From an uncultured Tenacibaculum sp. (GTDB lineage: Bacteria > Bacteroidota > Bacteroidia > Flavobacteriales > Flavobacteriaceae), in contig CANLQH010000002.1 in assembly GCA_947493285.1 (NCBI GenBank), positions 450,062-514,061 on the forward strand: DNA of 64,000 nucleotides. The letters run 5' to 3'. A model generated the notes under the pieces. That model saw only the letters and a list, made by a program, of their open reading frames with translations, made no database searches and was not told the DNA's origin. The translations under genes were made by a program, and so were the position numbers. Of the stretch, positions 9 through 51,298 are shown piece after piece; within the stretch, counting starts at the first letter, position 1; every line of letters starts with the position of its first letter.

Positions 9-983
9 TTGTATATGGACTTTATAAAAAAACACAGTGCCGAAATTTTAATTCATATTTTATTTTGGTCGTTATTTACATTTATCTCGCTATTTGTATT
101 TACTCAATACTATTGGGCGGAAAACCCTTTTTTACAGTATTTTTTTATTTTAGTGGTTATTGTTTACACCAATAATCAGGTGTTACTTCCTTTTTTTGTT
201 AAAAAGAAATGGTACGTTTTTTACGGTTTCATTTTTATACTAATTTCTTTCTTAGCAACTCAGTTGTATTGTTATGTTTTTACTCGATGTGGTTGTACAA
301 TAATGAAATGTTTAAGTGATTATTTGTGGCAAACTATAACTCCGCTTTTGTTTTTCTCTTTTATATGGGTGCTTTTCAGGTATATCGATCAATCTAAAGA
401 AGTAGAACAAATTCAGCAAGAGCGAACGGAAATGGAATTGAAGTTTTTAAAATCACAAATCAATCCGCATGTTTTACTAAATAACTTAAACACCATTTAT
501 TCTTACGCCATTGAAAAGCCAAATAAAGCTCCAGATTTAATTTTAAAGTTATCCGACAACCTAAAGCATGTCTTATATGAAAGCAACACTAAAAAGGTCG
601 CATTATATAAAGAAATACAGTTTATAGATAACTATGTAGCTTTTCAAAAAATAAGAACTGAAGGGATTAAAAAAGTTGACTATAAAAAGACAATAGATTC
701 TGATAAACATTCAATCGCACCTTTATTATTAATTACACTTATTGAAAATACATTTAAACACAGTGTTTTAAATAGCACAATTTTTATAGAAATTAAAGTA
801 GAAAAAGGTAAATTAACCTGTATGTGTTCTAATAGTTTTGATGCTAGTAAAAAGAATGGTAATGATACCATAGGGTTGAATAATCTTAAAAAAAGATTGA
901 ATTTGTTGTACCCAAACAGTTATGATCTTGTAATTGAAGAAAATAAAGATTTTAAAGTAATATTACAATTAGATTTAAATTAG
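9..983 (+). CDS. LytS/YehU-family sensor histidine kinase (N-terminal TM segments, His_kinase and HATPase domains)
   Basis: Hydrophobic N-terminus; LKSQINPHVLLNNLNTIY H-box; PLLLITLIENTFKH; IGLNNLKKRL; directly upstream of a LytTR regulator. Confidence 0.9.
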   Translation: MYMDFIKKHSAEILIHILFWSLFTFISLFVFTQYYWAENPFLQYFFILVVIVYTNNQVLLPFFVKKKWYVFYGFIFILISFLATQLYCYVFTRCGCTIMKCLSDYLWQTITPLLFFSFIWVLFRYIDQSKEVEQIQQERTEMELKFLKSQINPHVLLNNLNTIYSYAIEKPNKAPDLILKLSDNLKHVLYESNTKKVALYKEIQFIDNYVAFQKIRTEGIKKVDYKKTIDSDKHSIAPLLLITLIENTFKHSVLNSTIFIEIKVEKGKLTCMCSNSFDASKKNGNDTIGLNNLKKRLNLLYPNSYDLVIEENKDFKVILQLDLN

Positions 984-1689: not shown

Positions 1690-2835
1690 TTAATCCCAAG
1701 TATTCTCTGCAGCATCTCCTCCCCAGATTAACGTAGCTAAATAAGGATTATCAATTATTGGGTTTCTATTTCCTTGCTTAGTTGCAATAACATTGTTACG
1801 ATTCTTCTCAAAATCAGAAACTGGATCTTCTTTATTCCATTCTAATAATAAATTAATCATATTACTATCTGATGAATTAACTGTACCAATGGCAACGTTT
1901 TTAGGTAGACATTGATCACCATAGCGTAAATACATGTACATCATCATACGAGCAACATCACCTTTCCATTCATCACCTGGATACCATCCTCCAGAAATAT
2001 CACCTGCATTTCCAGAACCATCAACGAATTTTTTACTCCCTCTATTCGAATTCATTTTAACATCAGAGGGTCTTAAGTGGTGTGGATCTGCACCAGGACC
2101 TGAAGTACCTAAATTAGGGTCTCCTAATGCCTTAGGATATACGTGTTCTCTGTTCCAATCTGAACCTTGAGTACCACCTGTCTCATTTTTATCTCTGCTC
2201 CTATCAGTTATATAATTTCCATCATTGTCACTGTATCCGTAGATTAATAATACTTTTGTATTATCTGTTGGGTCTATGTCTGATTCTTTTAATACATCCC
2301 AACCATAACTTAAAACTGTAGTATGCTCATTTATAGTTTTTGTAGCTAAAGCATCCATTAATGAAGAACCTGTTAGAGTTAAGTCTACATCGTTATAGTA
2401 GTTTTGCAAATCTGTTGGAATGTTAAAACTCCCTGTATTTCCACCTCCTGAATTTGAAGTATCTTCTTTAACAGTAATAGTAACTGTAGCAGTAGAACAG
2501 CTACTAGTTGTAATTGTACTACAAATAGTATACTTAAATGAATCTGTTCCAAAAAAATCTGATGCTGGAGTGTAAGTATATTCATCGTTATTTTTAACTA
2601 CTTTACCATTTTTAGCTGTAGTAGCCTCAAAAGTCACCTTAACATTACCTGTTGTGTAGGTGTCATTAGTTAAAAAATCTGGTAAAACAACTGGCGTATT
2701 TTCGTCTGCTTGGAAAGAATCATTCACAGCGATTACTTTATCTTCTGGTGTTGGCTTTACAATTTCATCATCACTTCCGCCACAGTTTATAAAAAAAGAA
2801 ACTATGATTCCTAAAACTAATACTCTTTTCATCAT
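1690..2835 (-). CDS. Endonuclease I-family lipoprotein with Ig-like (Big_9-type) domain
   Basis: Start moved to MMKRVLVLG (signal peptide, lipobox FINC); AVNDS...FFGTDSFKYTIC Ig-like domain; WNREHVYPK, DPHHLRP, NSNRG, KGDVARMMMYM, RNNVI..KQGNRNP nuclease motifs. Confidence 0.88.
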   Translation of the reverse strand: MMKRVLVLGIIVSFFINCGGSDDEIVKPTPEDKVIAVNDSFQADENTPVVLPDFLTNDTYTTGNVKVTFEATTAKNGKVVKNNDEYTYTPASDFFGTDSFKYTICSTITTSSCSTATVTITVKEDTSNSGGGNTGSFNIPTDLQNYYNDVDLTLTGSSLMDALATKTINEHTTVLSYGWDVLKESDIDPTDNTKVLLIYGYSDNDGNYITDRSRDKNETGGTQGSDWNREHVYPKALGDPNLGTSGPGADPHHLRPSDVKMNSNRGSKKFVDGSGNAGDISGGWYPGDEWKGDVARMMMYMYLRYGDQCLPKNVAIGTVNSSDSNMINLLLEWNKEDPVSDFEKNRNNVIATKQGNRNPIIDNPYLATLIWGGDAAENTWD

Positions 2836-2851
2836 TCTAATATTTAAAAAA

Positions 2852-3457
2852 TTATTTTTTATCGTGTACTTTCGTTGGAATTTGATCATTCCAAATAGTT
2901 AATATATCGGTTGCAACACTTGCGCCACTTCCTGCTGCGATAGCAAATTGACTACGCCAACCTGCTAAAGTTCCGCAAACATACAAACCTTTTTTTATTA
3001 AATGGTTAAAATTTCGCAATTGAACCCTGTCCTTCATTGAATTAGCTCTCATATGAGGTTCAATATATTGCTCTAACCCACTTATTTCAAACGGTTTTGA
3101 ATAGTTAAGAGCTATAACTACATTTTTGCTCAAATATTCATCCTTATTTGTGATTACCTTATATCCTTGTTCGTCACCTAAAACGGCTATTACTTTCTCG
3201 TTTGCAATTTGATTTACATCTGGATATTGAGTTTTTAATTGCTCCTTTCCTTGATTTAAGATATCTTCTCCTAAGGTTCCAGCTGATAAACCTAAAACAT
3301 TATTAAATAATGCATTTTGCAAATGAGATGATCGCTGATGCAAAATTATACCAATTTCTTTATTTTTAGCATACTCTTTTGTTTGAGCAGATCCTAATAC
3401 CAACGCACATTGCATTCCTGAAACTCCTCCTCCAACAATTAAAACATCAAAAATCAT
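2852..3457 (-). CDS. FAD-dependent oxidoreductase (short thioredoxin-reductase-like)
   Basis: DVLIVGGGVSG Rossmann motif; GLYVCG...SQFAIAAGSGA C-terminal FAD motif. Confidence 0.8.
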   Translation of the reverse strand: MIFDVLIVGGGVSGMQCALVLGSAQTKEYAKNKEIGIILHQRSSHLQNALFNNVLGLSAGTLGEDILNQGKEQLKTQYPDVNQIANEKVIAVLGDEQGYKVITNKDEYLSKNVVIALNYSKPFEISGLEQYIEPHMRANSMKDRVQLRNFNHLIKKGLYVCGTLAGWRSQFAIAAGSGASVATDILTIWNDQIPTKVHDKK

Positions 3458-4038
3458 TATGCTAGTAACACTTTAATATTCGTCGCAAATAATTTAACTG
3501 CAATTGCTAATAATATTACTCCAAATATTTTTCGAATTATTTTTATTCCATTGTTACCTATCATCTTCTCTATTTTTGAAGATGTTTTTAACACTATATA
3601 TATCACCAATACATTTAATAAAACAGCTATAATGATATTTCCAATGTTAAACTCTGCTCTTAAAGAAAGTAATGTGGTTAAGCTACCTGGACCAGCAATT
3701 AAAGGAAAGGCTAGAGGAAATACTGTTGCTGTTAATGTTTCATCTTCATCATCTTTATATAAAGTAATCCCTAAAATCATTTCTAAAGCAATAAAAAACA
3801 AAATAAAAGCACCTGCAACTGCAAATGAATGCACGTCTATTCCTATTAAACTTAATAATCGTTCTCCTATAAAAAGAAACAAAATCATAATAAAGCCGGC
3901 AATAACTGAAGCTTTTTCAGATTGAATATGACCTACTTTTTTTCGTAAATCTATAATAATAGGAATGTTTCCAATAATATCAATTACAGCAAACAATACC
4001 ATGAAAGCAGTGAAAATTTCTTTTAAATTAAAATTCAT
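3457..4038 (-). CDS. MarC-family membrane protein
   Basis: LFAVIDIIGNIP; FPLAFPLIAGPGSLT; six hydrophobic segments. Confidence 0.88.
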   Translation of the reverse strand: MNFNLKEIFTAFMVLFAVIDIIGNIPIIIDLRKKVGHIQSEKASVIAGFIMILFLFIGERLLSLIGIDVHSFAVAGAFILFFIALEMILGITLYKDDEDETLTATVFPLAFPLIAGPGSLTTLLSLRAEFNIGNIIIAVLLNVLVIYIVLKTSSKIEKMIGNNGIKIIRKIFGVILLAIAVKLFATNIKVLLA

Positions 4039-4148
4039 ATTATGTTGTTTTTCGGGTACAAAATTAGATAAGTAATGTTACAATCTAGTATTTTTGCATC
4101 TAAATTTACGTGAAGTTTATGTAAACTTCTAACTTTAAAATATATTTT

Positions 4149-4721
4149 ATGTTTCAATTAGGAAAAACCATCGTTTCTGAAGACCTTATAGAAAAAGAAT
4201 TCGTTTGTAATTTATCTGCTTGTAAAGGTGCTTGTTGTATTGATGGAGATGCTGGTGCTCCACTAGAAGAGGAAGAAACTAAAATTTTAGAAGAAATATA
4301 TCCAAAAGTAAAGCCTTTTTTACGTAAAGAAGGTATTGATGCTATCGAAAAACAAGGAACTTGGATTAAAAGTGATTTTGGTGAGTTAGAAACTCCTTTG
4401 ATTAATGATGCTGACTGCGCCTATGTTATTTTTGATGATAAAGGAACGGCTTTATGTGCAATTGAAGAGGCCTATAATCAAGGATTAGTGGATTGGAAAA
4501 AACCTGTTTCTTGTCATTTATACCCAGTAAGAGTTAAAGATTTTAGTGAATTTTCGGCGGTAAATTACCACAAGTGGGAAATTTGTGATGATGCTTGTTC
4601 TTTAGGAAAAGAATTACAAGTACCTGTTTATAAATTTGTAAAGCAAGCTCTCGTAAGAAAGTTTGGACAAAATTGGTATGATGAATTAGAAAAAATGGCA
4701 GAAAAGCATTTGAAGAAATAA
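4149..4721 (+). CDS. DUF3109-family Cys-rich protein
   Basis: FVCNLSACKGACCIDGDAGAPL; KPVSCHLYPVR. Confidence 0.85.
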   Translation: MFQLGKTIVSEDLIEKEFVCNLSACKGACCIDGDAGAPLEEEETKILEEIYPKVKPFLRKEGIDAIEKQGTWIKSDFGELETPLINDADCAYVIFDDKGTALCAIEEAYNQGLVDWKKPVSCHLYPVRVKDFSEFSAVNYHKWEICDDACSLGKELQVPVYKFVKQALVRKFGQNWYDELEKMAEKHLKK

Positions 4722-8487: not shown

Positions 8488-9570
8488 ATGGAGTTACAAC
8501 CACCATATCGTAAAATTATTCATGTTGACATGGATGCTTTTTACGCATCAGTTGAGCAATTAGACAATCCTGATTTAATTGGTAAAGCGGTTGCCGTTGG
8601 AGGAAATGAAATTAGAGGAGTGGTTTCTGCCGCAAGTTATGAAGCTCGTAAATTCGGTGTACGATCTGCAATGAGCGGATTTTTAGCAAAAAAAAAATGT
8701 CCCCATTTAATTTTCGTCCCACCTAGATTTGATCGTTACAAAGAAATCTCATCAAAAATTAGAGCTATTTTTTATGATTATACCGATTTAGTAGAACCGC
8801 TATCTTTAGATGAAGCCTATTTAGATGTAACTGAGAATAAAAAAGGAAATGCTTCAGCAAGTATGATTGCTCAAGAAATTCGTAAACGTATTTGGGATGA
8901 ATTAGAATTAAAAGCTTCAGCAGGAATATCTATTAATAAATTTATCGCTAAAGTAGCTTCAGATATTAATAAGCCTAACGGGCAAAAAACCATAAACCCA
9001 GAAGATGTCATTCCTTTTTTAGAAGAACTTCCTGTAAATAAATTTTATGGGGTCGGTAAAGTAACTGCTGCTAAAATGCATAACCTAGGAATCTTTACAG
9101 GATTAGATTTAAAGAAAAAAACGTTAGAAGAGCTTTCTGTTTTATTTGGAAAATCAGGGGTTCATTATTTTAATATTGTTAGAGGAATCCACAATAGTAA
9201 AGTAAAACCTAATCGAGTTCGAAAATCTATTGCTGCCGAACGTACTTTTAATGAAAATCTATCTTCAGAAGTTTTTATGCTAGATCGTTTGGATAAAATT
9301 GCTGAGGAATTAGAACGAAGAATGAAAAAATCGAATACAAAGGGTAAAACGGTTACTTTAAAAATCAAATACAGCGACTTTACACAACAAACTCGTAGCA
9401 AAACTACCAATCATTATATTCAACTAAAAAAAGAGTTTTATCCTATTGTTAAAGAGCTGTTGTATCAAGAAAAACTTAAAAACTCCGTACGCCTTTTAGG
9501 AATTTCTTTCAGTAATTTAAATACAGAGAAAAAAGATCCTATTTGGGTACAATTAAAATTCGATTTTTAA
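8488..9570 (+). CDS. dinB: DNA polymerase IV
   Basis: IIHVDMDAFYASVEQ, SYEARKFGVRSAM, SLDEAYLD. Confidence 0.96.
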   Translation: MELQPPYRKIIHVDMDAFYASVEQLDNPDLIGKAVAVGGNEIRGVVSAASYEARKFGVRSAMSGFLAKKKCPHLIFVPPRFDRYKEISSKIRAIFYDYTDLVEPLSLDEAYLDVTENKKGNASASMIAQEIRKRIWDELELKASAGISINKFIAKVASDINKPNGQKTINPEDVIPFLEELPVNKFYGVGKVTAAKMHNLGIFTGLDLKKKTLEELSVLFGKSGVHYFNIVRGIHNSKVKPNRVRKSIAAERTFNENLSSEVFMLDRLDKIAEELERRMKKSNTKGKTVTLKIKYSDFTQQTRSKTTNHYIQLKKEFYPIVKELLYQEKLKNSVRLLGISFSNLNTEKKDPIWVQLKFDF

Positions 9571-11483
9571 ACTATCGGAAGCATTAAAGATACTTTTGTT
9601 CCGTTTGGTTTTCCTTTTTCATCAACCAAATCTACATACTCTAAAGAATAAGTATTTATAAATTCATTTGAAAAATTCTTTAGCCTTTCTTTTGTTAAAT
9701 CAATTCCTATCGACTTTCTGTTTAAAGACTTACTGTTCTTTATTTTAAAAGCAGCATCTCTACCGATACCGTTATCTATAATATTAATTTCGATAAATTC
9801 TTTTGAAAATTTCTCAATGGTTAAATCTACCTTCTTTTCTCCTTTCTTTGATGACAATCCGTGCCAAATAGCGTTTTCAAGAAAAGGCTGTAATACTAAT
9901 GGTGGTAATTTAATTCTCTCTAAATTTAAATCATCCGCAATATTTTCTTTATATGTTATTTCATTAGAGAATCGAATATTTTCAATACTCATGTAAAGAT
10001 TCATTGTTTTCAACTCTTCAGAAAGAGCAACTTCTTTTACTGTTGTAGATTCTAGAATATTACGAATTAGTTTAGAGAACTTATTTAAATAATAAACCGC
10101 ATTTTTCTGCTCATTATTTATAATATAAAGTTTAATTGAATTTAAAGCATTAAATACAAAATGTGGATTCATTTGAATTCTAAGCGCTTCTTGTTCTAAT
10201 AATAAAATCTGTTTGTCGTTTTTTAATAAACGTTGTCTGTAAATTGAATATAATAATACTCCAAATAAAGCAATAGAAACCAGCGAAATAATTAAAATGT
10301 TTCTATTTCTTAGTAGTTTAAGCTTTGAAATCTCATTCTCTCGTGCTAAACTTTTTAATTTATTATTACTTACTTCACTATCATATTTGTTAATTAAACT
10401 ATTTACATAACGAATGGTTTTAGCGTTAAATGTTTTATTTTTAACTTCAATTGATTTTTTAAAAAACTCTAAAGACTCCTTATAATTTCCTTCCTTCTCA
10501 TTTAGTTCAGATAAATGATCATATGATAATACTAAACTTGAGGGAATATTATTGTCTATCCCTATTTTTAGTGCTTTATCTAAATAGTCTCTGGATTCTT
10601 TTAACCTATTTAATTTTAAAAGCGACCATCCTAAAGTATTATAAACTTCAGATAAATAATACCTATTGCCTATTTCTTCTGCAGATTCAATAACTTCTGT
10701 AATATATTCGTAAGCTTCATTATATTTTCCTTGCTTAATTAAAATATCACTAATACTATTATGACATATAACTTTACCAAGCTTATCATTATTTAACCTG
10801 TTGTATTCTAAAGATTTTTGATAATTTTCTAAAGCTAAGTCTAAGTCTCCAATATTCTTGTGCGCGTACCCAATGTTTTGATGATTAATCGCTAGTCCCC
10901 TGCGGTCTTCTAATTGTTTTTGAAGCGCAATAGACTCGCTAAACTTTTCTAAGGCTCTTTCATATTGACCTAGCGTTAAATATATATTACCAATACTATT
11001 AATTGTAATACTATTACTAATCTTTATATCGTTAGTAGGATTTTCTACTTTTAAAATAATATCTAATGCTGATTGATGGTAATTTAAAGCTCCTCTTATT
11101 TTATCTTGTCTTCTACAGACTACTCCTAATTGATTTAAAGTTACAATTTCAGCTTCTATACTTTTTATCTCCTTAGATAAATTTAAAGCTTCCTTATACT
11201 TTTCAACAGCTTTATTATACTCAGTTACATTTCTATGTGAACGTCCTTGAACATTTCTAGCAAAAATCTCACCTATTACATAGTTGTTTTTTTGACTTTC
11301 ATTTAAAAGTTTTTCTATTTGTTCCTCTTTAAAACGTACTCTTTTAAAATGCTTTTGAAGTTTAAAATAACTTGATTCTTTTTTTTCAATTGCTGAGACA
11401 ATTAAACTATCTACATTCTTTTTTTGAGAAAAGCTTAATGTTGAAATTAAAAATAATAATATGGAAGTGTAAATAAATTTCAT
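9567..11483 (-). CDS. TPR-repeat periplasmic sensor histidine kinase (LytS-type His_kinase)
   Basis: Signal peptide, many TPR-like helices (TLNQLGVV, INSIGNIY, NHQNIGYAH), one TM segment, ALRIQMNPHFVFNALNSIK, LQPFLENAIWHG, IIDNGIGR. Confidence 0.9.
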   Translation of the reverse strand: MKFIYTSILLFLISTLSFSQKKNVDSLIVSAIEKKESSYFKLQKHFKRVRFKEEQIEKLLNESQKNNYVIGEIFARNVQGRSHRNVTEYNKAVEKYKEALNLSKEIKSIEAEIVTLNQLGVVCRRQDKIRGALNYHQSALDIILKVENPTNDIKISNSITINSIGNIYLTLGQYERALEKFSESIALQKQLEDRRGLAINHQNIGYAHKNIGDLDLALENYQKSLEYNRLNNDKLGKVICHNSISDILIKQGKYNEAYEYITEVIESAEEIGNRYYLSEVYNTLGWSLLKLNRLKESRDYLDKALKIGIDNNIPSSLVLSYDHLSELNEKEGNYKESLEFFKKSIEVKNKTFNAKTIRYVNSLINKYDSEVSNNKLKSLARENEISKLKLLRNRNILIISLVSIALFGVLLYSIYRQRLLKNDKQILLLEQEALRIQMNPHFVFNALNSIKLYIINNEQKNAVYYLNKFSKLIRNILESTTVKEVALSEELKTMNLYMSIENIRFSNEITYKENIADDLNLERIKLPPLVLQPFLENAIWHGLSSKKGEKKVDLTIEKFSKEFIEINIIDNGIGRDAAFKIKNSKSLNRKSIGIDLTKERLKNFSNEFINTYSLEYVDLVDEKGKPNGTKVSLMLPIV

Positions 11484-11484
11484 T

Positions 11485-12219
11485 TTAAAACTTTTCTAAG
11501 AAATCAGATTTTCTTTGACGTGATACAGGTATTTTATGGTTGTCTTCTAAAATCACATATCCATCAGACTTTAAGAACTCTTTTATTTTATTTAAATTTA
11601 TGACAAATGAATTATGGATTCTAAAAAAATGTTCATCAGGAAGCAATTCATTTATTTCTTTCAACTTTTTAGTAACCACAATTTTTTTATTTAATGTTGT
11701 GTGAATTGAACAATAGTTCCCATCTGATTCTACAAATAAAATTTCTGATTGATCTAAGAAAATAAGTTTTCCATCAGTATTAATAGTTATTTTTCTTCTA
11801 TTAAACTTCTGAGTAAAGCTGGATAATATTTTTTCGAATTTCTCACTGCTATTATTCTTACTATTATGATTTTTAATCCTATTAATAGTAGCTTCTAAAT
11901 CATCTGTATCGATTGGTTTTAACAAATAATCAATTGCTTCGTTTTTTAAAGCTTTAATTGCGTACTCATTATATGCTGTTGTAATAACTACCGCGAAATC
12001 CCTTTTATTTAATTTCTCTAATAATTGAAAGCCATCCATAGTTGGCATTTCAATATCTAAAAAAAGACAATCAATTGAACTCTCGTTAATATGTTTTATT
12101 GCTTTGTCTGCTTCTGTAAACGTATTTATAATTTCAATATCTTTATCAAAATTTGATAATTCCCAGGAAAGACTTTGTATAGCCTTTGGCTCATCATCAA
12201 CAATAATTGCTCTTAACAT
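11485..12219 (-). CDS. LytTR-family response regulator
   Basis: Start moved to MLRAIIVDDE; LFLDIEMPTMDG, TTAYNEYA, YLLKP; LytTR FFRIHNSFVINL, IPVSRQRK. Confidence 0.93.
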   Translation of the reverse strand: MLRAIIVDDEPKAIQSLSWELSNFDKDIEIINTFTEADKAIKHINESSIDCLFLDIEMPTMDGFQLLEKLNKRDFAVVITTAYNEYAIKALKNEAIDYLLKPIDTDDLEATINRIKNHNSKNNSSEKFEKILSSFTQKFNRRKITINTDGKLIFLDQSEILFVESDGNYCSIHTTLNKKIVVTKKLKEINELLPDEHFFRIHNSFVINLNKIKEFLKSDGYVILEDNHKIPVSRQRKSDFLEKF

Positions 12220-12330
12220 TTTGTAGGGATTTTCACCAAATGTAACTGATATAAGTGTAAAATTAAAATACCACATCAGTCTTTTACCCTATAGTTGAGT
12301 TCTCCTTTTACTTAAAAAAAAAGAATACCT

Positions 12331-12401
12331 ACCATTTATACATAAAATCAAACCATTTACACAAAAATAGATTTTAAAAATATTTTTTAACCTCATATTT
12401 G
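12331..12401 (+). promoter_or_regulatory. LytTR-type direct-repeat operator and -7 promoter element (unit A)
   Basis: ACCATTTATAC (12331) and ACCATTTACAC (12352), 21-bp period; CATATTTG at 12394, 42 bp after the second box. Confidence 0.75.
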
Positions 12402-12405
12402 CAGT

Positions 12406-12495
12406 ATAATACACAAGGGGATCATATTGATAAATTGGGGGATTAATCAATAATGACAAAATTTAAAAGACATCGTTATATAACGATGTCTTTTT
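12406..12495 (+). ncRNA. Candidate G-loop sRNA copy A
   Basis: 57-nt core identical to copy B; AAGGGGAT plus hairpin with TGGGGG loop; terminator AAAAGACATCGTT/AACGATGTCTTTTT at 12465-12495. Confidence 0.7.
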
Positions 12496-12528
12496 ATTTA
12501 TAACAAAATTACTTCTACCCTTTAATTT

Positions 12529-12599
12529 ACCATTTATACAAAAAATACTACCAACTATACATAACCATTTTTACCAAGTCTTTATTTATTACATATTTG
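12529..12599 (+). promoter_or_regulatory. LytTR-type direct-repeat operator and -7 promoter element (unit B)
   Basis: ACCATTTATAC (12529) and ACCAACTATAC (12550), 21-bp period; CATATTTG at 12592, again 42 bp after the second box. Confidence 0.72.
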
Positions 12600-12603
12600 T
12601 AGC

Positions 12604-12694
12604 ATAATACACAAGGGGATCATATTGATAAATTGGGGGATTAATCAATAATGACAAAATCAAAAAAAGCATTACATAGCGTAATGCTTTTTTT
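12604..12694 (+). ncRNA. Candidate G-loop sRNA copy B
   Basis: 57-nt core 12604-12660 identical to 12406-12462; different terminator AAAAAAAGCATTAC/GTAATGCTTTTTTT at 12662-12694. Confidence 0.7.
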
Positions 12695-12731
12695 ATGCAA
12701 CAATTTAAAATAAAAACTTTTTGATATACAA

Positions 12732-13068: not shown

Positions 13069-13554
13069 TTATTTGCTTAACGCTTCAATTAATTCAGCTT
13101 TCTTTAAAGAAGTGTATCCTTTAATACCTGCTTCTTTAGCTGCAGTTTTTAATTCTGCAACAGTCATTGAACTTAAATCAGTCGCTTCTGCTTTTGGTTC
13201 AGCTTTAGGAGCTTCTTTCTTAGCAGCTGCCTTTTTAGCACCTGAAACAGAAATTCCTTCAATTTGAATTTCAGTTAAATACTGTCTATGTCCATTTTTC
13301 TTTTTGTAACCTTTTCTTCTTTTTTTCTTGAAAACGATTACTTTATCACCTTTTAAGTGACCTAATACCTTTGCAGTTACTCCTGCACCTGCTATAGCTG
13401 GGGCGCCAATAGTTACGTTACCTTTATCTTCAACAAGCATTACATTATCAAAAGTTACTTTTGATCCTTCTGCCTCTTGTAAACGGTGTACGTATACTTT
13501 TTGGTCTTTTGCTACTTTAAATTGCTGCCCTGCTATCTCTACGATTGCGTACAT
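13069..13554 (-). CDS. rplU: 50S ribosomal protein bL21 with C-terminal Rho-N-like helical extension
   Basis: [29 protein letters not shown]; Ala/Lys linker then [34 protein letters not shown]. Confidence 0.96.
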
Positions 13555-49111: not shown

Positions 49112-49247
49112 AGGTTAATTACTATCTATAATCAAAAAACAACCTTAAAAAGTTTGTTAATTTCTTGGCTTTCTCCCATAAACACTATACTTTAGAGACT
49201 TTATTTTTAGTCCCCCACAAAAATTGTTTAATTAAAACCCTATAATT

Positions 49248-49403
49248 ATGGAAAACAAAAATTTACAAGAAGTGGCAATGACGTTAAGTCCTGATACAGA
49301 CAACCCAACTACTGGTGATACAGGAGGAACAGGTGGCACAGAAAGACCAACTACTGGTGGTGGTGGAACCGGAAATGGTAATGACGATCCAACAAAATCT
49401 TAA
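49248..49403 (+). CDS. 51-aa Gly/Thr/Asp-rich peptide upstream of TPR sensor kinase (not in ORF track)
   Basis: MENKNLQEVAMTLSPDTDNPTTGDTGGTGGTERPTTGGGGTGNGNDDPTKS; A-rich start context; GC clearly above the surrounding intergenic DNA. Confidence 0.75.
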   Translation: MENKNLQEVAMTLSPDTDNPTTGDTGGTGGTERPTTGGGGTGNGNDDPTKS

Positions 49404-49450
49404 TTTAATTATAATAAAACCATCACTATATGTGGTGGTTTTATAATATT

Positions 49451-51298
49451 ATGCGTAATCTTCTTTTTTTCTTTTTTTTCACTTCATTTATTATTGCTCA
49501 AAACAAAAAAAACACTTTAAATAATGAGCAAGATTCCGTTGTATTTTCTAATACAATGATAAAAGCTTTATCTTTTTTTAGAGAAAAAAAACTGGATTCG
49601 TTCAAAAAATATAGTTTTAAGGCATTTTATCTTAGTAAAAAAAATAAAGACTTACAAAAAGTACATTTTTATCTAGCTACCTATTATAAATACGCTAAAA
49701 AACCAGATAGTGCTTACTATCATTACTATCAATCAAAAAATATTTTATTAGACCTCAATGATAGTATAACTGCGGGTAGAAGAATGTTTAGTATAGCCAA
49801 TATTAAACTTGCAGAAAATGATTTATTAGGTAGTGAAATATCATCTATAAACAGCTTAAAACATGTTGAAAACTCAAATTTACATAGAGTAAAACATCTT
49901 GTTTATGTAAATCTTGGGATTATTTCACATCGAAGAAAAGAACTCAATGATGCTTTAAAGTATTATAATTTAAGCTTAAAAGAGTTAGAAAATGACTCTT
50001 TACAAAACTTAGATTTACAGCTTAATGTAATCAATAATAAAGGTGTTTTATTTCAATCTTTCGAACAACATGAAAAAGCAATTCCTTTTTTTAAAGAAGG
50101 TTTAGCGTTTGATAGTATTAAAGAAAAGTACCCTACTCAATATGCTTTGTTATTAGAAAATTTAGCTTATAGCAATTATATGTTTGGAAATAAAAAAAAT
50201 GTTTTAAAGCAGTATGAAGAAGTATTAAAAATTAGAGAAAAAAGAAACAACCTTAGTGGGGCCAGTATTACACAAATAAATCTATCTAACTATTACAAAG
50301 ACCTTAATCAAAAAACAAAGGCAAAATTTCATGCTAATCGAGCTTTAAAATACGCCAAACAAACTCACAATAATAAAAAATGGTTAGAAGCTTTACAAAA
50401 TCTTTCAGAATTGACAACAGGTATACAATCAACAAAATATTTACAAGAATACATTACGCTAAACGATAGTTTATTTCAAAAAGAACGTTTGTTAAAAAAC
50501 CAATTTGCTAAAATAGAATATGAAACTGAGAAAAAAGAAAAAGAAAACACCGTTTTAAAAACTGAGAATGAAAAAAAACAAGCAGAAATTACTTACCAAA
50601 AACAGCAAAAAACAATCGGTTGGCTAGCTGCAGCCAGCGGTATATTGCTATTTGGTTTAAGTGTAATGTTTTATTTTCAAAGAAGGAGAAAATTACTGTA
50701 TCAAGCCCAGTTAGAAAGAGTACAGGCTAGAGAACACGAACGTCAACAAATTGCAAAATCTTTACATGATGAAGTTGCAGGAGATTTACGTTTATTACAT
50801 CAAAAGCTAGAGAAATCAAACCTATTAGAAGAAGCACAAAAACTAGATGCCGTTAAAGACAACGTACGTAATTTATCGCATCAGTTAAGTAGTGTTAGTT
50901 TTGATAAAGTTTCTTTTAAAGACCAAATAATTAATTTAGTTAGTGATTATTTTGAGCTTGATTTTAGAATATCAGTTAATGGTTTACATAAGTACGAATG
51001 GGAACCGATTAATGATGCTATTAAACGCTTGCTATATTTAAGTACTCGAGAAAGTATACAAAACAGCAAAAAATATGCTGAAGCAGATAAACTAACCATA
51101 GATTTTACCCTAGAAAAAAAATATGTACATTTGAATATTACTGACAATGGCATCGGTTTTGATACTAATACCAGTAAAAAAGGAATTGGTTTACAAAACC
51201 TACAAGAACGTGTTGAAGAGTTAAACGGAACTCTAAATATTGACAGCGAAGTAGGTAACGGAACCAAAACTAATATTCAAATACCCTTAAATGCTTGA
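49451..51298 (+). CDS. TPR-repeat periplasmic sensor histidine kinase (HisKA_3 type)
   Basis: Signal peptide MRNLLFFFFF; TPR helices; one TM segment; ERQQIAKSLHDEVAG; TDNGIGF, GIGLQNLQERV. Confidence 0.92.
   Translation: MRNLLFFFFFTSFIIAQNKKNTLNNEQDSVVFSNTMIKALSFFREKKLDSFKKYSFKAFYLSKKNKDLQKVHFYLATYYKYAKKPDSAYYHYYQSKNILLDLNDSITAGRRMFSIANIKLAENDLLGSEISSINSLKHVENSNLHRVKHLVYVNLGIISHRRKELNDALKYYNLSLKELENDSLQNLDLQLNVINNKGVLFQSFEQHEKAIPFFKEGLAFDSIKEKYPTQYALLLENLAYSNYMFGNKKNVLKQYEEVLKIREKRNNLSGASITQINLSNYYKDLNQKTKAKFHANRALKYAKQTHNNKKWLEALQNLSELTTGIQSTKYLQEYITLNDSLFQKERLLKNQFAKIEYETEKKEKENTVLKTENEKKQAEITYQKQQKTIGWLAAASGILLFGLSVMFYFQRRRKLLYQAQLERVQAREHERQQIAKSLHDEVAGDLRLLHQKLEKSNLLEEAQKLDAVKDNVRNLSHQLSSVSFDKVSFKDQIINLVSDYFELDFRISVNGLHKYEWEPINDAIKRLLYLSTRESIQNSKKYAEADKLTIDFTLEKKYVHLNITDNGIGFDTNTSKKGIGLQNLQERVEELNGTLNIDSEVGNGTKTNIQIPLNA

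Follow-up and report, generated by a model that had tools for sequence, protein, structure and literature searches.

Tandem genes for a G-run small RNA with putative LytTR-type operators in Tenacibaculum

The present analysis concerns two tandem units at positions 12330-12725 of a 64,000-nt stretch of DNA from an uncultured Tenacibaculum sp. (GenBank assembly GCA_947493285.1, contig CANLQH010000002.1), hereafter the window, which lie divergent from a gene coding for a LytTR response regulator (RR). The units are likely to be two paralogous genes for a trans-acting small RNA (sRNA) of about 93 nt, here called class I, that is activated by the LytTR regulator and whose effector is a G-run loop. 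Each unit carries a pair of direct repeats, a promoter element, an identical RNA core and a terminator of its own, the arrangement is conserved among Tenacibaculum species, and a transcript with a mapped 5' end is present in a related species. The RNA family is new, probably Flavobacteriaceae-wide and not in Rfam, and it is a new example of a known circuit type. Two-component-driven regulatory RNAs such as those of agr/RNAIII, Gac/Rsm, and LuxO/Qrr are central bacterial switches, and post-transcriptional control in Flavobacteriia is barely charted. We found no literature describing a LytTR-controlled small RNA in Flavobacteriia, nor a two-component/sRNA module of such a kind. The module would join a sensor that has an extracytoplasmic tetratricopeptide repeat (TPR) domain to a LytTR regulator, and it would provide a defined operator, promoter, and transcription start as well as an abundant sRNA. 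Among the species that carry it are fish pathogens (T. finnmarkense, T. dicentrarchi, T. maritimum, T. soleae, and T. discolor), and a probable homologue occurs in many further marine Flavobacteriaceae.

The duplicated units and their transcript

A repeat search returned a tandem repeat spaced by 198 bp, in which 12330-12468 and 12528-12666 are 81% identical; this is the duplication from which the original prediction had started. The longest run identical between the two copies is 12406-12462 and 12604-12660 (57/57), in agreement with the perfectly conserved 57-nt core described there, and a 51-nt core pattern had exactly two matches in the 64-kb window and none in shuffled sequences. Outside the core, units A and B are identical at 10/12 positions from the -7 box to the transcription start site (TSS), at 25/32 in the box pair, at 16/31 in the spacer from box 2 to the promoter, and at 17/36 in the 3' part. 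All boxes lie on the plus strand. Box A1, ACCATTTATAC, is located at 12331-12341 (about -75 to -65) and box A2, ACCATTTACAC, at 12352-12362 (about -54 to -44), while box B1, ACCATTTATAC, and box B2, ACCAACTATAC, occupy 12529-12539 and 12550-12560, so that the 21-bp period reported earlier is found in both pairs. The -7 element CATATTTG, of the Bacteroidetes TAnnTTTG type, lies at 12394-12401 (+) in unit A and at 12592-12599 (+) in unit B. In both it follows the start of box 2 by exactly 42 bp, as had been claimed.

The sRNA of copy A extends over 12406-12498 (+; about 90-94 nt) and that of copy B over 12604-12694 (+; about 91 nt), and they score 87.5 and 86.3 bits, respectively, with a 14-pair covariance model (R1). 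In the predicted fold of copy A, the motif AAGGGGA (12415-12421, +) is single-stranded on the 5' side of an A/U-rich hairpin of 14 pairs (12422-12456, +), whose GGGG loop belongs to the GGGGG at 12437-12441. Copy B has the same parts on the plus strand, with AAGGGGA at 12613-12619 and the hairpin at 12620-12654 (GGGGG loop, 12635-12639). This fold agrees with the single-stranded AAGGGGA and the stem with a G-run loop proposed previously. The folding z-scores are -5.7 and -5.1 for the full transcripts and -2.5 for the core by itself. Intrinsic terminators are predicted at 12465-12494 (+), followed by a U run, and at 12661-12695 (+). The earlier statement that the promoters had diverged and that the terminators were unrelated holds for the divergence, including that of the 3' parts, and goes too far for the terminators, for both read AAAAG.CAT...ATG.CTTTTT with different stem interiors. 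With a promoter and an intrinsic terminator in each unit and without a conserved open reading frame (ORF), the units have the organization of sRNA genes, as originally suggested.

Transcript evidence came from the RNA-seq runs X31, X32, X36, and X38, which belong to one study of a related Tenacibaculum and are matched by the T. litoreum copy (locus L008). Contigs from X32, X36, and X38 match L008 3722-3814(-) at 100% identity, in the orientation predicted for the sRNA. In one contig of X36, the Illumina RA5 5' adapter GTTCAGAGTTCTACAGTCCGACGATC is joined to the RNA at L008:3814; in the alignment of this contig with the window, a single base separates the adapter from 12407-12456. Since one base precedes 12407 after the adapter, the 5' end corresponds to window position 12406, and by the same reasoning from copy A the start of copy B is 12604. 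Position 12406 opens the 57-nt core and comes five bases downstream of the TTTG in the -7 box, which is also the distance of +1 in the Bacteroidetes promoter model. The contigs end at L008 3721-3723, past the U run of the terminator, giving a length of about 93 nt. Thus, the strand, 5' end, and length expected for the sRNA were all seen in a related Tenacibaculum. In X32, the whole-contig mean depth was 2000 for the sRNA, 714 for rplU-rpmA, and 64.5 for the RR, and the sRNA contig of that run aligns to window 12615-12654. The depths of the sRNA and rplU-rpmA contigs were 500-1070 and 14165 in X36, and 2500-4400 and 2184 in X38. The depth ratio of the sRNA to the ribosomal-protein contig therefore varies about 50-fold between runs, which suggests regulated expression. 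A second adapter junction in X36, at L008 3788 (window 12431), lies 26 nt further in, just before the G-run loop, and suggests a processed species beginning UAAAUUGGGGG.

The same RNA follows the box-promoter in 18 Tenacibaculum species. Altogether, blast, a fuzzy pattern, and R1 yielded 24 class I copies from 19 sources. Each of them is promoter-proximal, and the searches met no other in the window or in 765 kb of loci. Variation is almost absent from the block UUGAUAAAUUGGGGGAUUAAUCAA, and the loop block is invariant across Tenacibaculum, the most conserved part of the RNA being the G-run hairpin loop UUGGGGGAUUAAUCA. The 5' AAGGGGA is less conserved and has been lost in T. aestuariivivum and T. 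dicentrarchi. The lower stem varies yet pairs, with 93.8% of stem cells paired, AU/UA swaps in 5 sequences, and a bulge whose position shifts among species; the covariation score is 0.098 versus 0.064 in shuffles and was equalled by 2/500 shuffles. At least three independent duplications have occurred, one in the lineage of the window, T. pelagium (L001), and L015, one in L009, and one in T. aestuariivivum (L014). Perfect identity of the core is not universal, because the two copies of T. pelagium and of L015 differ by 1-2 core bases. The core is always far better kept than the flanks. This conservation across species, together with the exact start of the identical core at the mapped 5' end, supports the proposal that selection acts on the RNA sequence. 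No Rfam 15 family matched the units; the top hit scored 23.6 bits where the gathering score is 48 (E = 0.87), and only terminators were covered by it.

The putative operator and the LytTR two-component system

The RR gene (11485-12219, -) codes for a protein of 244 aa with Pfam matches to Response_reg (1.5e-23) and LytTR (PF04397; 3.7e-23). It is the first gene of an operon with a sensor histidine kinase (HK) gene (9567-11483, -; 638 aa), whose product matches TPR_12 (4e-35) and His_kinase (PF06580; 4e-19). The sequence of the HK shows a signal peptide at its N-terminus, TPRs placed in an extracytoplasmic domain, and a single transmembrane segment; its His_kinase domain is of the LytS/YehU type. 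Among NCBIfam models the RR matches BtsR best (6e-41), below the family (equivalog) cutoff. The RR is 99% identical to that of Tenacibaculum pelagium, and orthologues with 64-87% identity are found in Tenacibaculum, Polaribacter, Psychroserpens, Gelidibacter, Kordia, Maribacter, Arenibacter, and other genera. A putative -7 element of the RR-HK operon (TACATTTG on the minus strand) is located at 12237-12244 (-). Almost every Tenacibaculum locus retains ACCAAATGTAAC immediately before the RR start, and the Bacteroidetes TAnnTTTG consensus points to a promoter role for it. The genes rpmA and rplU lie downstream of the sRNA units and are convergent with them.

Orthologous loci were collected from species-representative genomes (80) and from assemblies (3), and a position weight matrix (PWM) of the boxes was built from 47 clean orthologous sites, a score above 25 bits being counted as a site. 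In most of these 83 loci, a pair of ACCAnyTAyAC repeats with a 21-bp period is present upstream of the RR on the opposite strand, and a site above the threshold adjoins the orthologous RR gene in 77/83, almost always divergently. The 47-site consensus is ACCATTTATAC for either repeat. The start-to-start distance is 21 bp in all sites, corresponding to a 10-nt spacer between 11-nt boxes or to 12-13 nt between 9- or 8-nt cores. From box 2 to the -7 element (TAnnTTTG) the distance is 42 bp in 34/47 sites and 41 bp in 3 more, and the sequence of this spacer is unconserved. In the window, the pair of unit A scores 40.7 bits and that of unit B 43.1 bits. No further box pair was detected by the PWM in the 64 kb, where the next independent site reached 6.7 bits and the shuffle maximum was 19.1. 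The suggestion that a weaker box B2 gives a graded response is unsupported, because ACCAACTATAC is a common variant among the orthologous sites (it forms both boxes in L023 and L038) and the pair of unit B scores above that of unit A. A weak third half-site, ACCCTTTAATT, lies at 12508-12518, 21 bp upstream of and in phase with box B1; the pair shifted one repeat upstream of box B1 scores 15.9 bits.

LytTR sites have been described as two repeats of 9-11 nt, 11-13 nt apart, without a shared consensus (PMC4847170). The probe used for YehT/BtsR, as read off the oligonucleotide printed in that report, includes ACCGCTTA-N13-ACCACTCA (PMC4847170). This motif is similar in form to the ACCATTTA-N13-ACCATTTA of Tenacibaculum, both having a 21-bp period. 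The identification of the boxes as LytTR-type operators is thus supported at the sequence level by the length and spacing of the repeats, their fixed distance from the -7 element, and the presence of the cognate regulator beside them in many genera.

In T. maritimum (L081), a thiol-activated cytolysin gene (797-2293, +) is located between the RR gene and the sRNA. The box pair stays with the sRNA (297-466, -), and none was found by the PWM before the cytolysin gene. A second strong box pair in this locus, at 171-210(-) with 29.8 bits, suggests another regulated transcript that is cut off by the end of the locus. In addition, L034, L035, L054, L066, L068, and L073 contain an extra box pair at about 3898-3923 (+), with 25-27 bits and in the orientation of the RR, about 80-100 bp upstream of its start. 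These pairs suggest autoregulation in some genera.

The closest parallels to this arrangement differ from it in their components. In S. aureus agr, a LytTR RR (AgrA) is likewise encoded beside a divergent regulatory RNA (RNAIII from P3, next to agrBDCA), the sites of the regulator are direct repeats with a period of about 21 bp upstream of the RNA promoter, and the RNA is the main output of the system. However, RNAIII has 514 nt and encodes hld, whereas the class I RNA has about 93 nt and is non-coding. The box sequences are unrelated, and the Tenacibaculum promoter is of the Bacteroidetes -7/-33 type in another phylum, Bacteroidota. The neighbourhood comprises the TPR/His_kinase HK, DinB, an ACT-domain protein, and rpmA/rplU, without an AgrD precursor, AgrB enzyme, or AgrC kinase. 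The locus is not agr, because AgrB and AgrD are absent and the kinase is of another type (TPR/LytS, PF06580). Similarly, the E. coli systems BtsS/BtsR (YehU/YehT) and YpdA/YpdB resemble the present one in that BtsR is the best match of the RR, the same His_kinase domain occurs, and the operator is alike. They differ from it in several respects: the Tenacibaculum sensor has TPRs instead of 5TM-Lyt/GAF domains, the target is an sRNA and not a transporter gene, and the match is below the cutoff. In C. perfringens, the LytTR system VirS/VirR likewise drives small regulatory RNAs directly through paired direct repeats, with VirR boxes before vrr (VR-RNA), virT, virU, and pfoA. The cytolysin gene of T. 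maritimum, a member of the PfoA family between the RR gene and the sRNA, is a curiosity in this respect, without a sequence relationship between the systems.

Duplicated sRNAs under one regulator are also known from OmrA/OmrB (OmpR), Qrr1-5 (LuxO), and PrrF1/F2, of which OmrA/B and PrrF1/F2 are in tandem. In these systems, an identical effector segment is kept while other parts have diverged, expression is two-component-driven, and the RNAs are Hfq-dependent. Their regulator families and RNA sequences are unrelated to class I. In F. psychrophilum, Rfp13 (GAUUUGGGGCAAAAA) and Rfp18 (GAGGGGGUGG) are Flavobacteriaceae sRNAs with intrinsic terminators and G-runs, and deletion of rfp18 lowered the mRNA of two metalloproteases (PMC9723704). 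Rfp18 adjoins hppD and not a LytTR regulator, and a link to LytTR was reported for neither RNA. Local alignment of Rfp13 and Rfp18 with class I and class II (the related RNA of other genera described below) stayed within the shuffle range (p = 0.13-0.92). A paper on vesicle sRNAs of T. mesophilum (PMC11303789) proved to be unrelated.

Possible action of the RNA and competing explanations

In the mechanism that we propose, an extracytoplasmic signal would lead the TPR-domain HK (9567-11483) to phosphorylate the RR (11485-12219), which would then bind the paired ACCAnyTAyAC repeats, 21 bp or two helical turns apart and centred at about -70 and -49. Bound RR would switch on each promoter, which has a good -7 box, CATATTTG, and only a degenerate -33 element. 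Transcription would start at 12406 (A) or 12604 (B) and stop at the intrinsic terminator of the respective copy. The resulting RNA would expose the 5' single-stranded AAGGGGA and the long A/U-rich hairpin with the loop UUGGGGGAUUA. This G-run loop would be the effector site, most likely pairing with rare C-rich stretches (AAUCCCCC) in target mRNAs. Pairing with rare C-run sites is favoured because GGGG is concentrated in the sRNAs and CCCC is absent near ORF starts: predicted sRNAs, about 600 nt in all, contain 9/31 of the window's plus-strand GGGG runs, and no CCCC was found from -80 to +20 of the 59 ORFs of at least 90 aa in the window. The base-pairing targets of the class I RNA are speculative.

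The G-run motif recurs in a second two-component system of the window, located at 49186-52600. It consists of a Gly/Thr/Pro-rich ORF of 51 aa (49248-49403), a TPR histidine kinase (49430-51298), a NarL-family regulator (51291-51968) whose best NCBIfam match, UvrY/SirA/GacA, is weak (8e-10), and an sRNA array directly downstream of the regulator (51975-52600). Three units in tandem start at 51975, 52152, and 52318, and in each of them a GCGGAAATCC direct repeat of 21-bp period and a -7 box precede a short G-run transcript with a terminator. These transcripts have CUUGGGGAAAA, UAAGGGGAAAAAUUAACC, UUAAGGGGAAUUU, AAUGGGGAAAUU, and CUAAGGGGAUUAAUAG, that is, five (A/U)GGGGA(A/U) motifs across the three sRNAs, and are of the GGGGAUUAAU type like the LytTR-driven RNA. 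Metagenomic relatives (L084-L086, L089) have arrays of 2-4 units, including UUUGGGGGGAUUAUAA and CUGGGGAUUAAUUU. Rfam gave nothing near a gathering score for the second array. A further G-run RNA considered at 54775 was discarded, the site looking like coding sequence on the other strand.

The 5' untranslated region (UTR) of the 51-aa ORF contains the C-run UUAGUCCCCCACAAAAAUUG (49208-49230). It is the only C5 run in a 5' UTR of the window and the only CCCC within -80 to +20 of a start codon there. The C-run is kept in two relatives, as AUCCCCCGUCCCCAAAAAUUG in L084 and AUCCCCCGCCCCAAAAAAUUG in L085, directly after a TAnnTTAG element. With the class I loop it could form 11 bp, at an energy not above background, so this leader is a lead and not a result as a class I target. 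Feedback pairing with the RR leader AAAAUCCCUAC was also considered and rejected; it would involve 7 bp only, and most RR leaders of Tenacibaculum lack the C-run.

Several observations weigh against an RR-activated RNA that pairs with mRNAs. The binding of the RR to the predicted boxes and the resulting activation are deduced from the sequence. No RNA runs matching the window's own sequence were found; the transcript evidence consists of assembled contigs from another species, with depths averaged over whole contigs, and the X32 sRNA contig is prolonged by 548 nt of unlike sequence. Since the apical stem is invariant, covariation within Tenacibaculum is modest, and the structure is supported moderately but not strongly. 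A target search with RNAduplex in the 64-kb window gave, apart from self-antisense matches, a best energy of -18.3 kcal/mol at 49191-49235 (49208-49218), where shuffled queries gave -17 to -21. Moreover, the occurrence of the same G-run motif under another two-component system would fit a common protein partner at least as well as mRNA pairing.

The last point leads to a different function for the same genes under the same control, in which the RNA is a protein sponge whose A/U-flanked GGGGA motifs titrate an RNA-binding protein, on the model of the GacA/UvrY-driven RsmY/Z and CsrB, which sequester CsrA through GGA motifs. We consider this rather unlikely and nevertheless a serious rival, because the second system uses the same motif. 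That system is unrelated to the first, its metagenomic relatives retain the G-run motif, and it is typical of sponge RNAs that one motif recurs in RNAs under different regulation. A sponge of the Csr/Rsm type would have many GGA motifs in loops and a CsrA-family protein in the same genome. There are two GGGGA motifs in each class I RNA, which is few for a sponge, and some species, such as T. aestuariivivum and T. dicentrarchi, have lost the first G-run. In addition, CsrA, Hfq, and ProQ were not found in any Bacteroidetes genome surveyed by Adams et al. (bioRxiv 10.1101/2021.04.27.441718). A broader and still doubtful proposal is a post-transcriptional hub in Flavobacteriaceae, in which several two-component systems, here the LytTR and the NarL/GacA-like one, would drive tandem sRNAs that have nothing in common but an A/U-flanked G-run of the GGGGAUUAAU type and that converge on one partner. 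This partner could be an RNA-binding protein, in a titration circuit like that of Csr/Rsm; the normally sequestered 3' part of 16S rRNA with the anti-Shine-Dalgarno sequence, whose CCUCC can pair with GGGGG and AAGGGG; or a few shared leaders with C-runs, among them that of the second system's operon, where UCCCCC(N)CCCCAAAAAUUG is conserved in the 5' UTR. The recurring motif could lead to the missing RNA-binding partner in Bacteroidota.

Two further explanations would remove the RNA from the centre of the system. If the conserved block were a DNA-level element, providing extra regulator sites or a divergent-promoter layout for RR-HK autoregulation, with any transcript as a by-product, the position of the boxes only about 110 bp from the RR start codon and the extra RR-oriented pairs of the six loci named above would be accounted for. 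This is very improbable, since conservation peaks downstream of the TSS and not in the promoter spacer, the identical core sets in at the mapped 5' end itself, terminators are maintained with different sequences, the sRNA transcript in X32 is far more abundant than the RR mRNA, and the boxes in T. maritimum accompany the sRNA and not the RR. The units might alternatively encode a small peptide, as many LytTR systems drive genes for pheromone or bacteriocin precursors, and in Maribacter and Saonia the same box-promoter is indeed followed by short ORFs with a hydrophobic start. In the window, ATG 12453 opens an ORF of 16 codons in unit A and ATG 12651 one of 20 codons in unit B. However, both ORFs begin close to where the core ends and extend through the terminators, and they are entirely different from copy to copy and from species to species. 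A TAG interrupts the sole frame through the core, the TTG-initiated MINWGINQ, in L002/L003, and a 1-nt deletion breaks it in L004, L011, and L013. No conserved ORF of at least 20 aa was found across the class I loci. The small-ORF reading was rejected because the frames are not conserved between species, and a peptide product of these units is scarcely credible.

Related loci in other genera and neighbouring features

In Psychroserpens, Gelidibacter, Aquaticitalea, Algicola, and relatives, the same box-promoter slot is occupied by a second, highly conserved RNA, class II, at 21 loci (L022-L027, L029, L034, L035, L038-L041, L045, L051, L053, L057, L060-L062, and L065; about 3640-3860, -). It comprises a hairpin AGUGAUCGUGGGGAUUCACU, a hairpin UUGAUUAAAUGCUAUUAAUCA, and a conserved GUCAGG..CCUGAC terminator. 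A class II profile (nhmmer) had no match in class I, and covariance model R1 had none in class II. The consensus sequences of the two classes can nonetheless be aligned (GGGGAAUCA-UA-UUGA-UAAAUUGGGGGAUUAAUCAAUAA versus GGGGAUUCACUAUUUGAUUAAAU---GCUAUUAAUCAUUAA) with a score of 35, compared with 19.1 +/- 3.7 for shuffled sequences (p about 0.001). Class I and class II are probably homologous; the homology is probable and not proven because only this consensus-to-consensus alignment is significant. Metatranscriptome contigs are present for the class II locus L027, and this evidence is weak because their ends misfit the predicted transcript.

Past the class II terminator lies a conserved element, UAGUUUUAGUUAGUUUAGUUAAUUAUUAGGGA, followed by a terminator hairpin of its own (L022 3640-3665, -; L023 3600-3625, -; L027 3627-3652, -; also L025, L029, and L055). 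It may be another small RNA. In three Polaribacter loci, hairpins with UUGGGGGAA and GUAGGGGGUU loops are found, and neither these Polaribacter-type loci nor those of class II had a match in Rfam 15. Other Polaribacter loci and Kordia have genes for secreted proteins there, namely a DUF4412 protein, a leucine-rich repeat (LRR) protein with a type IX secretion signal, and an FGE-sulfatase-domain protein. In Maribacter and Saonia (L054 3575-3703, -; L064 3520-3663, -; L073), the ORF that follows the box-promoter has 42-47 aa and a hydrophobic N-terminus, for example MKRCLLMFVFLLSLLLFAALVDDDDKKLPLQNNVLGVIEFKK, and could code for a secreted peptide or a small lipoprotein.

Beyond the sRNA units, the ribosomal protein L21 encoded at 13069-13554 (-) has a C-terminal extension matching Rho_N/SAP/HeH motifs (Pfam 1.4e-09); L21 of T. 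finnmarkense and T. dicentrarchi is 211 aa long and has an HHH_5 match.

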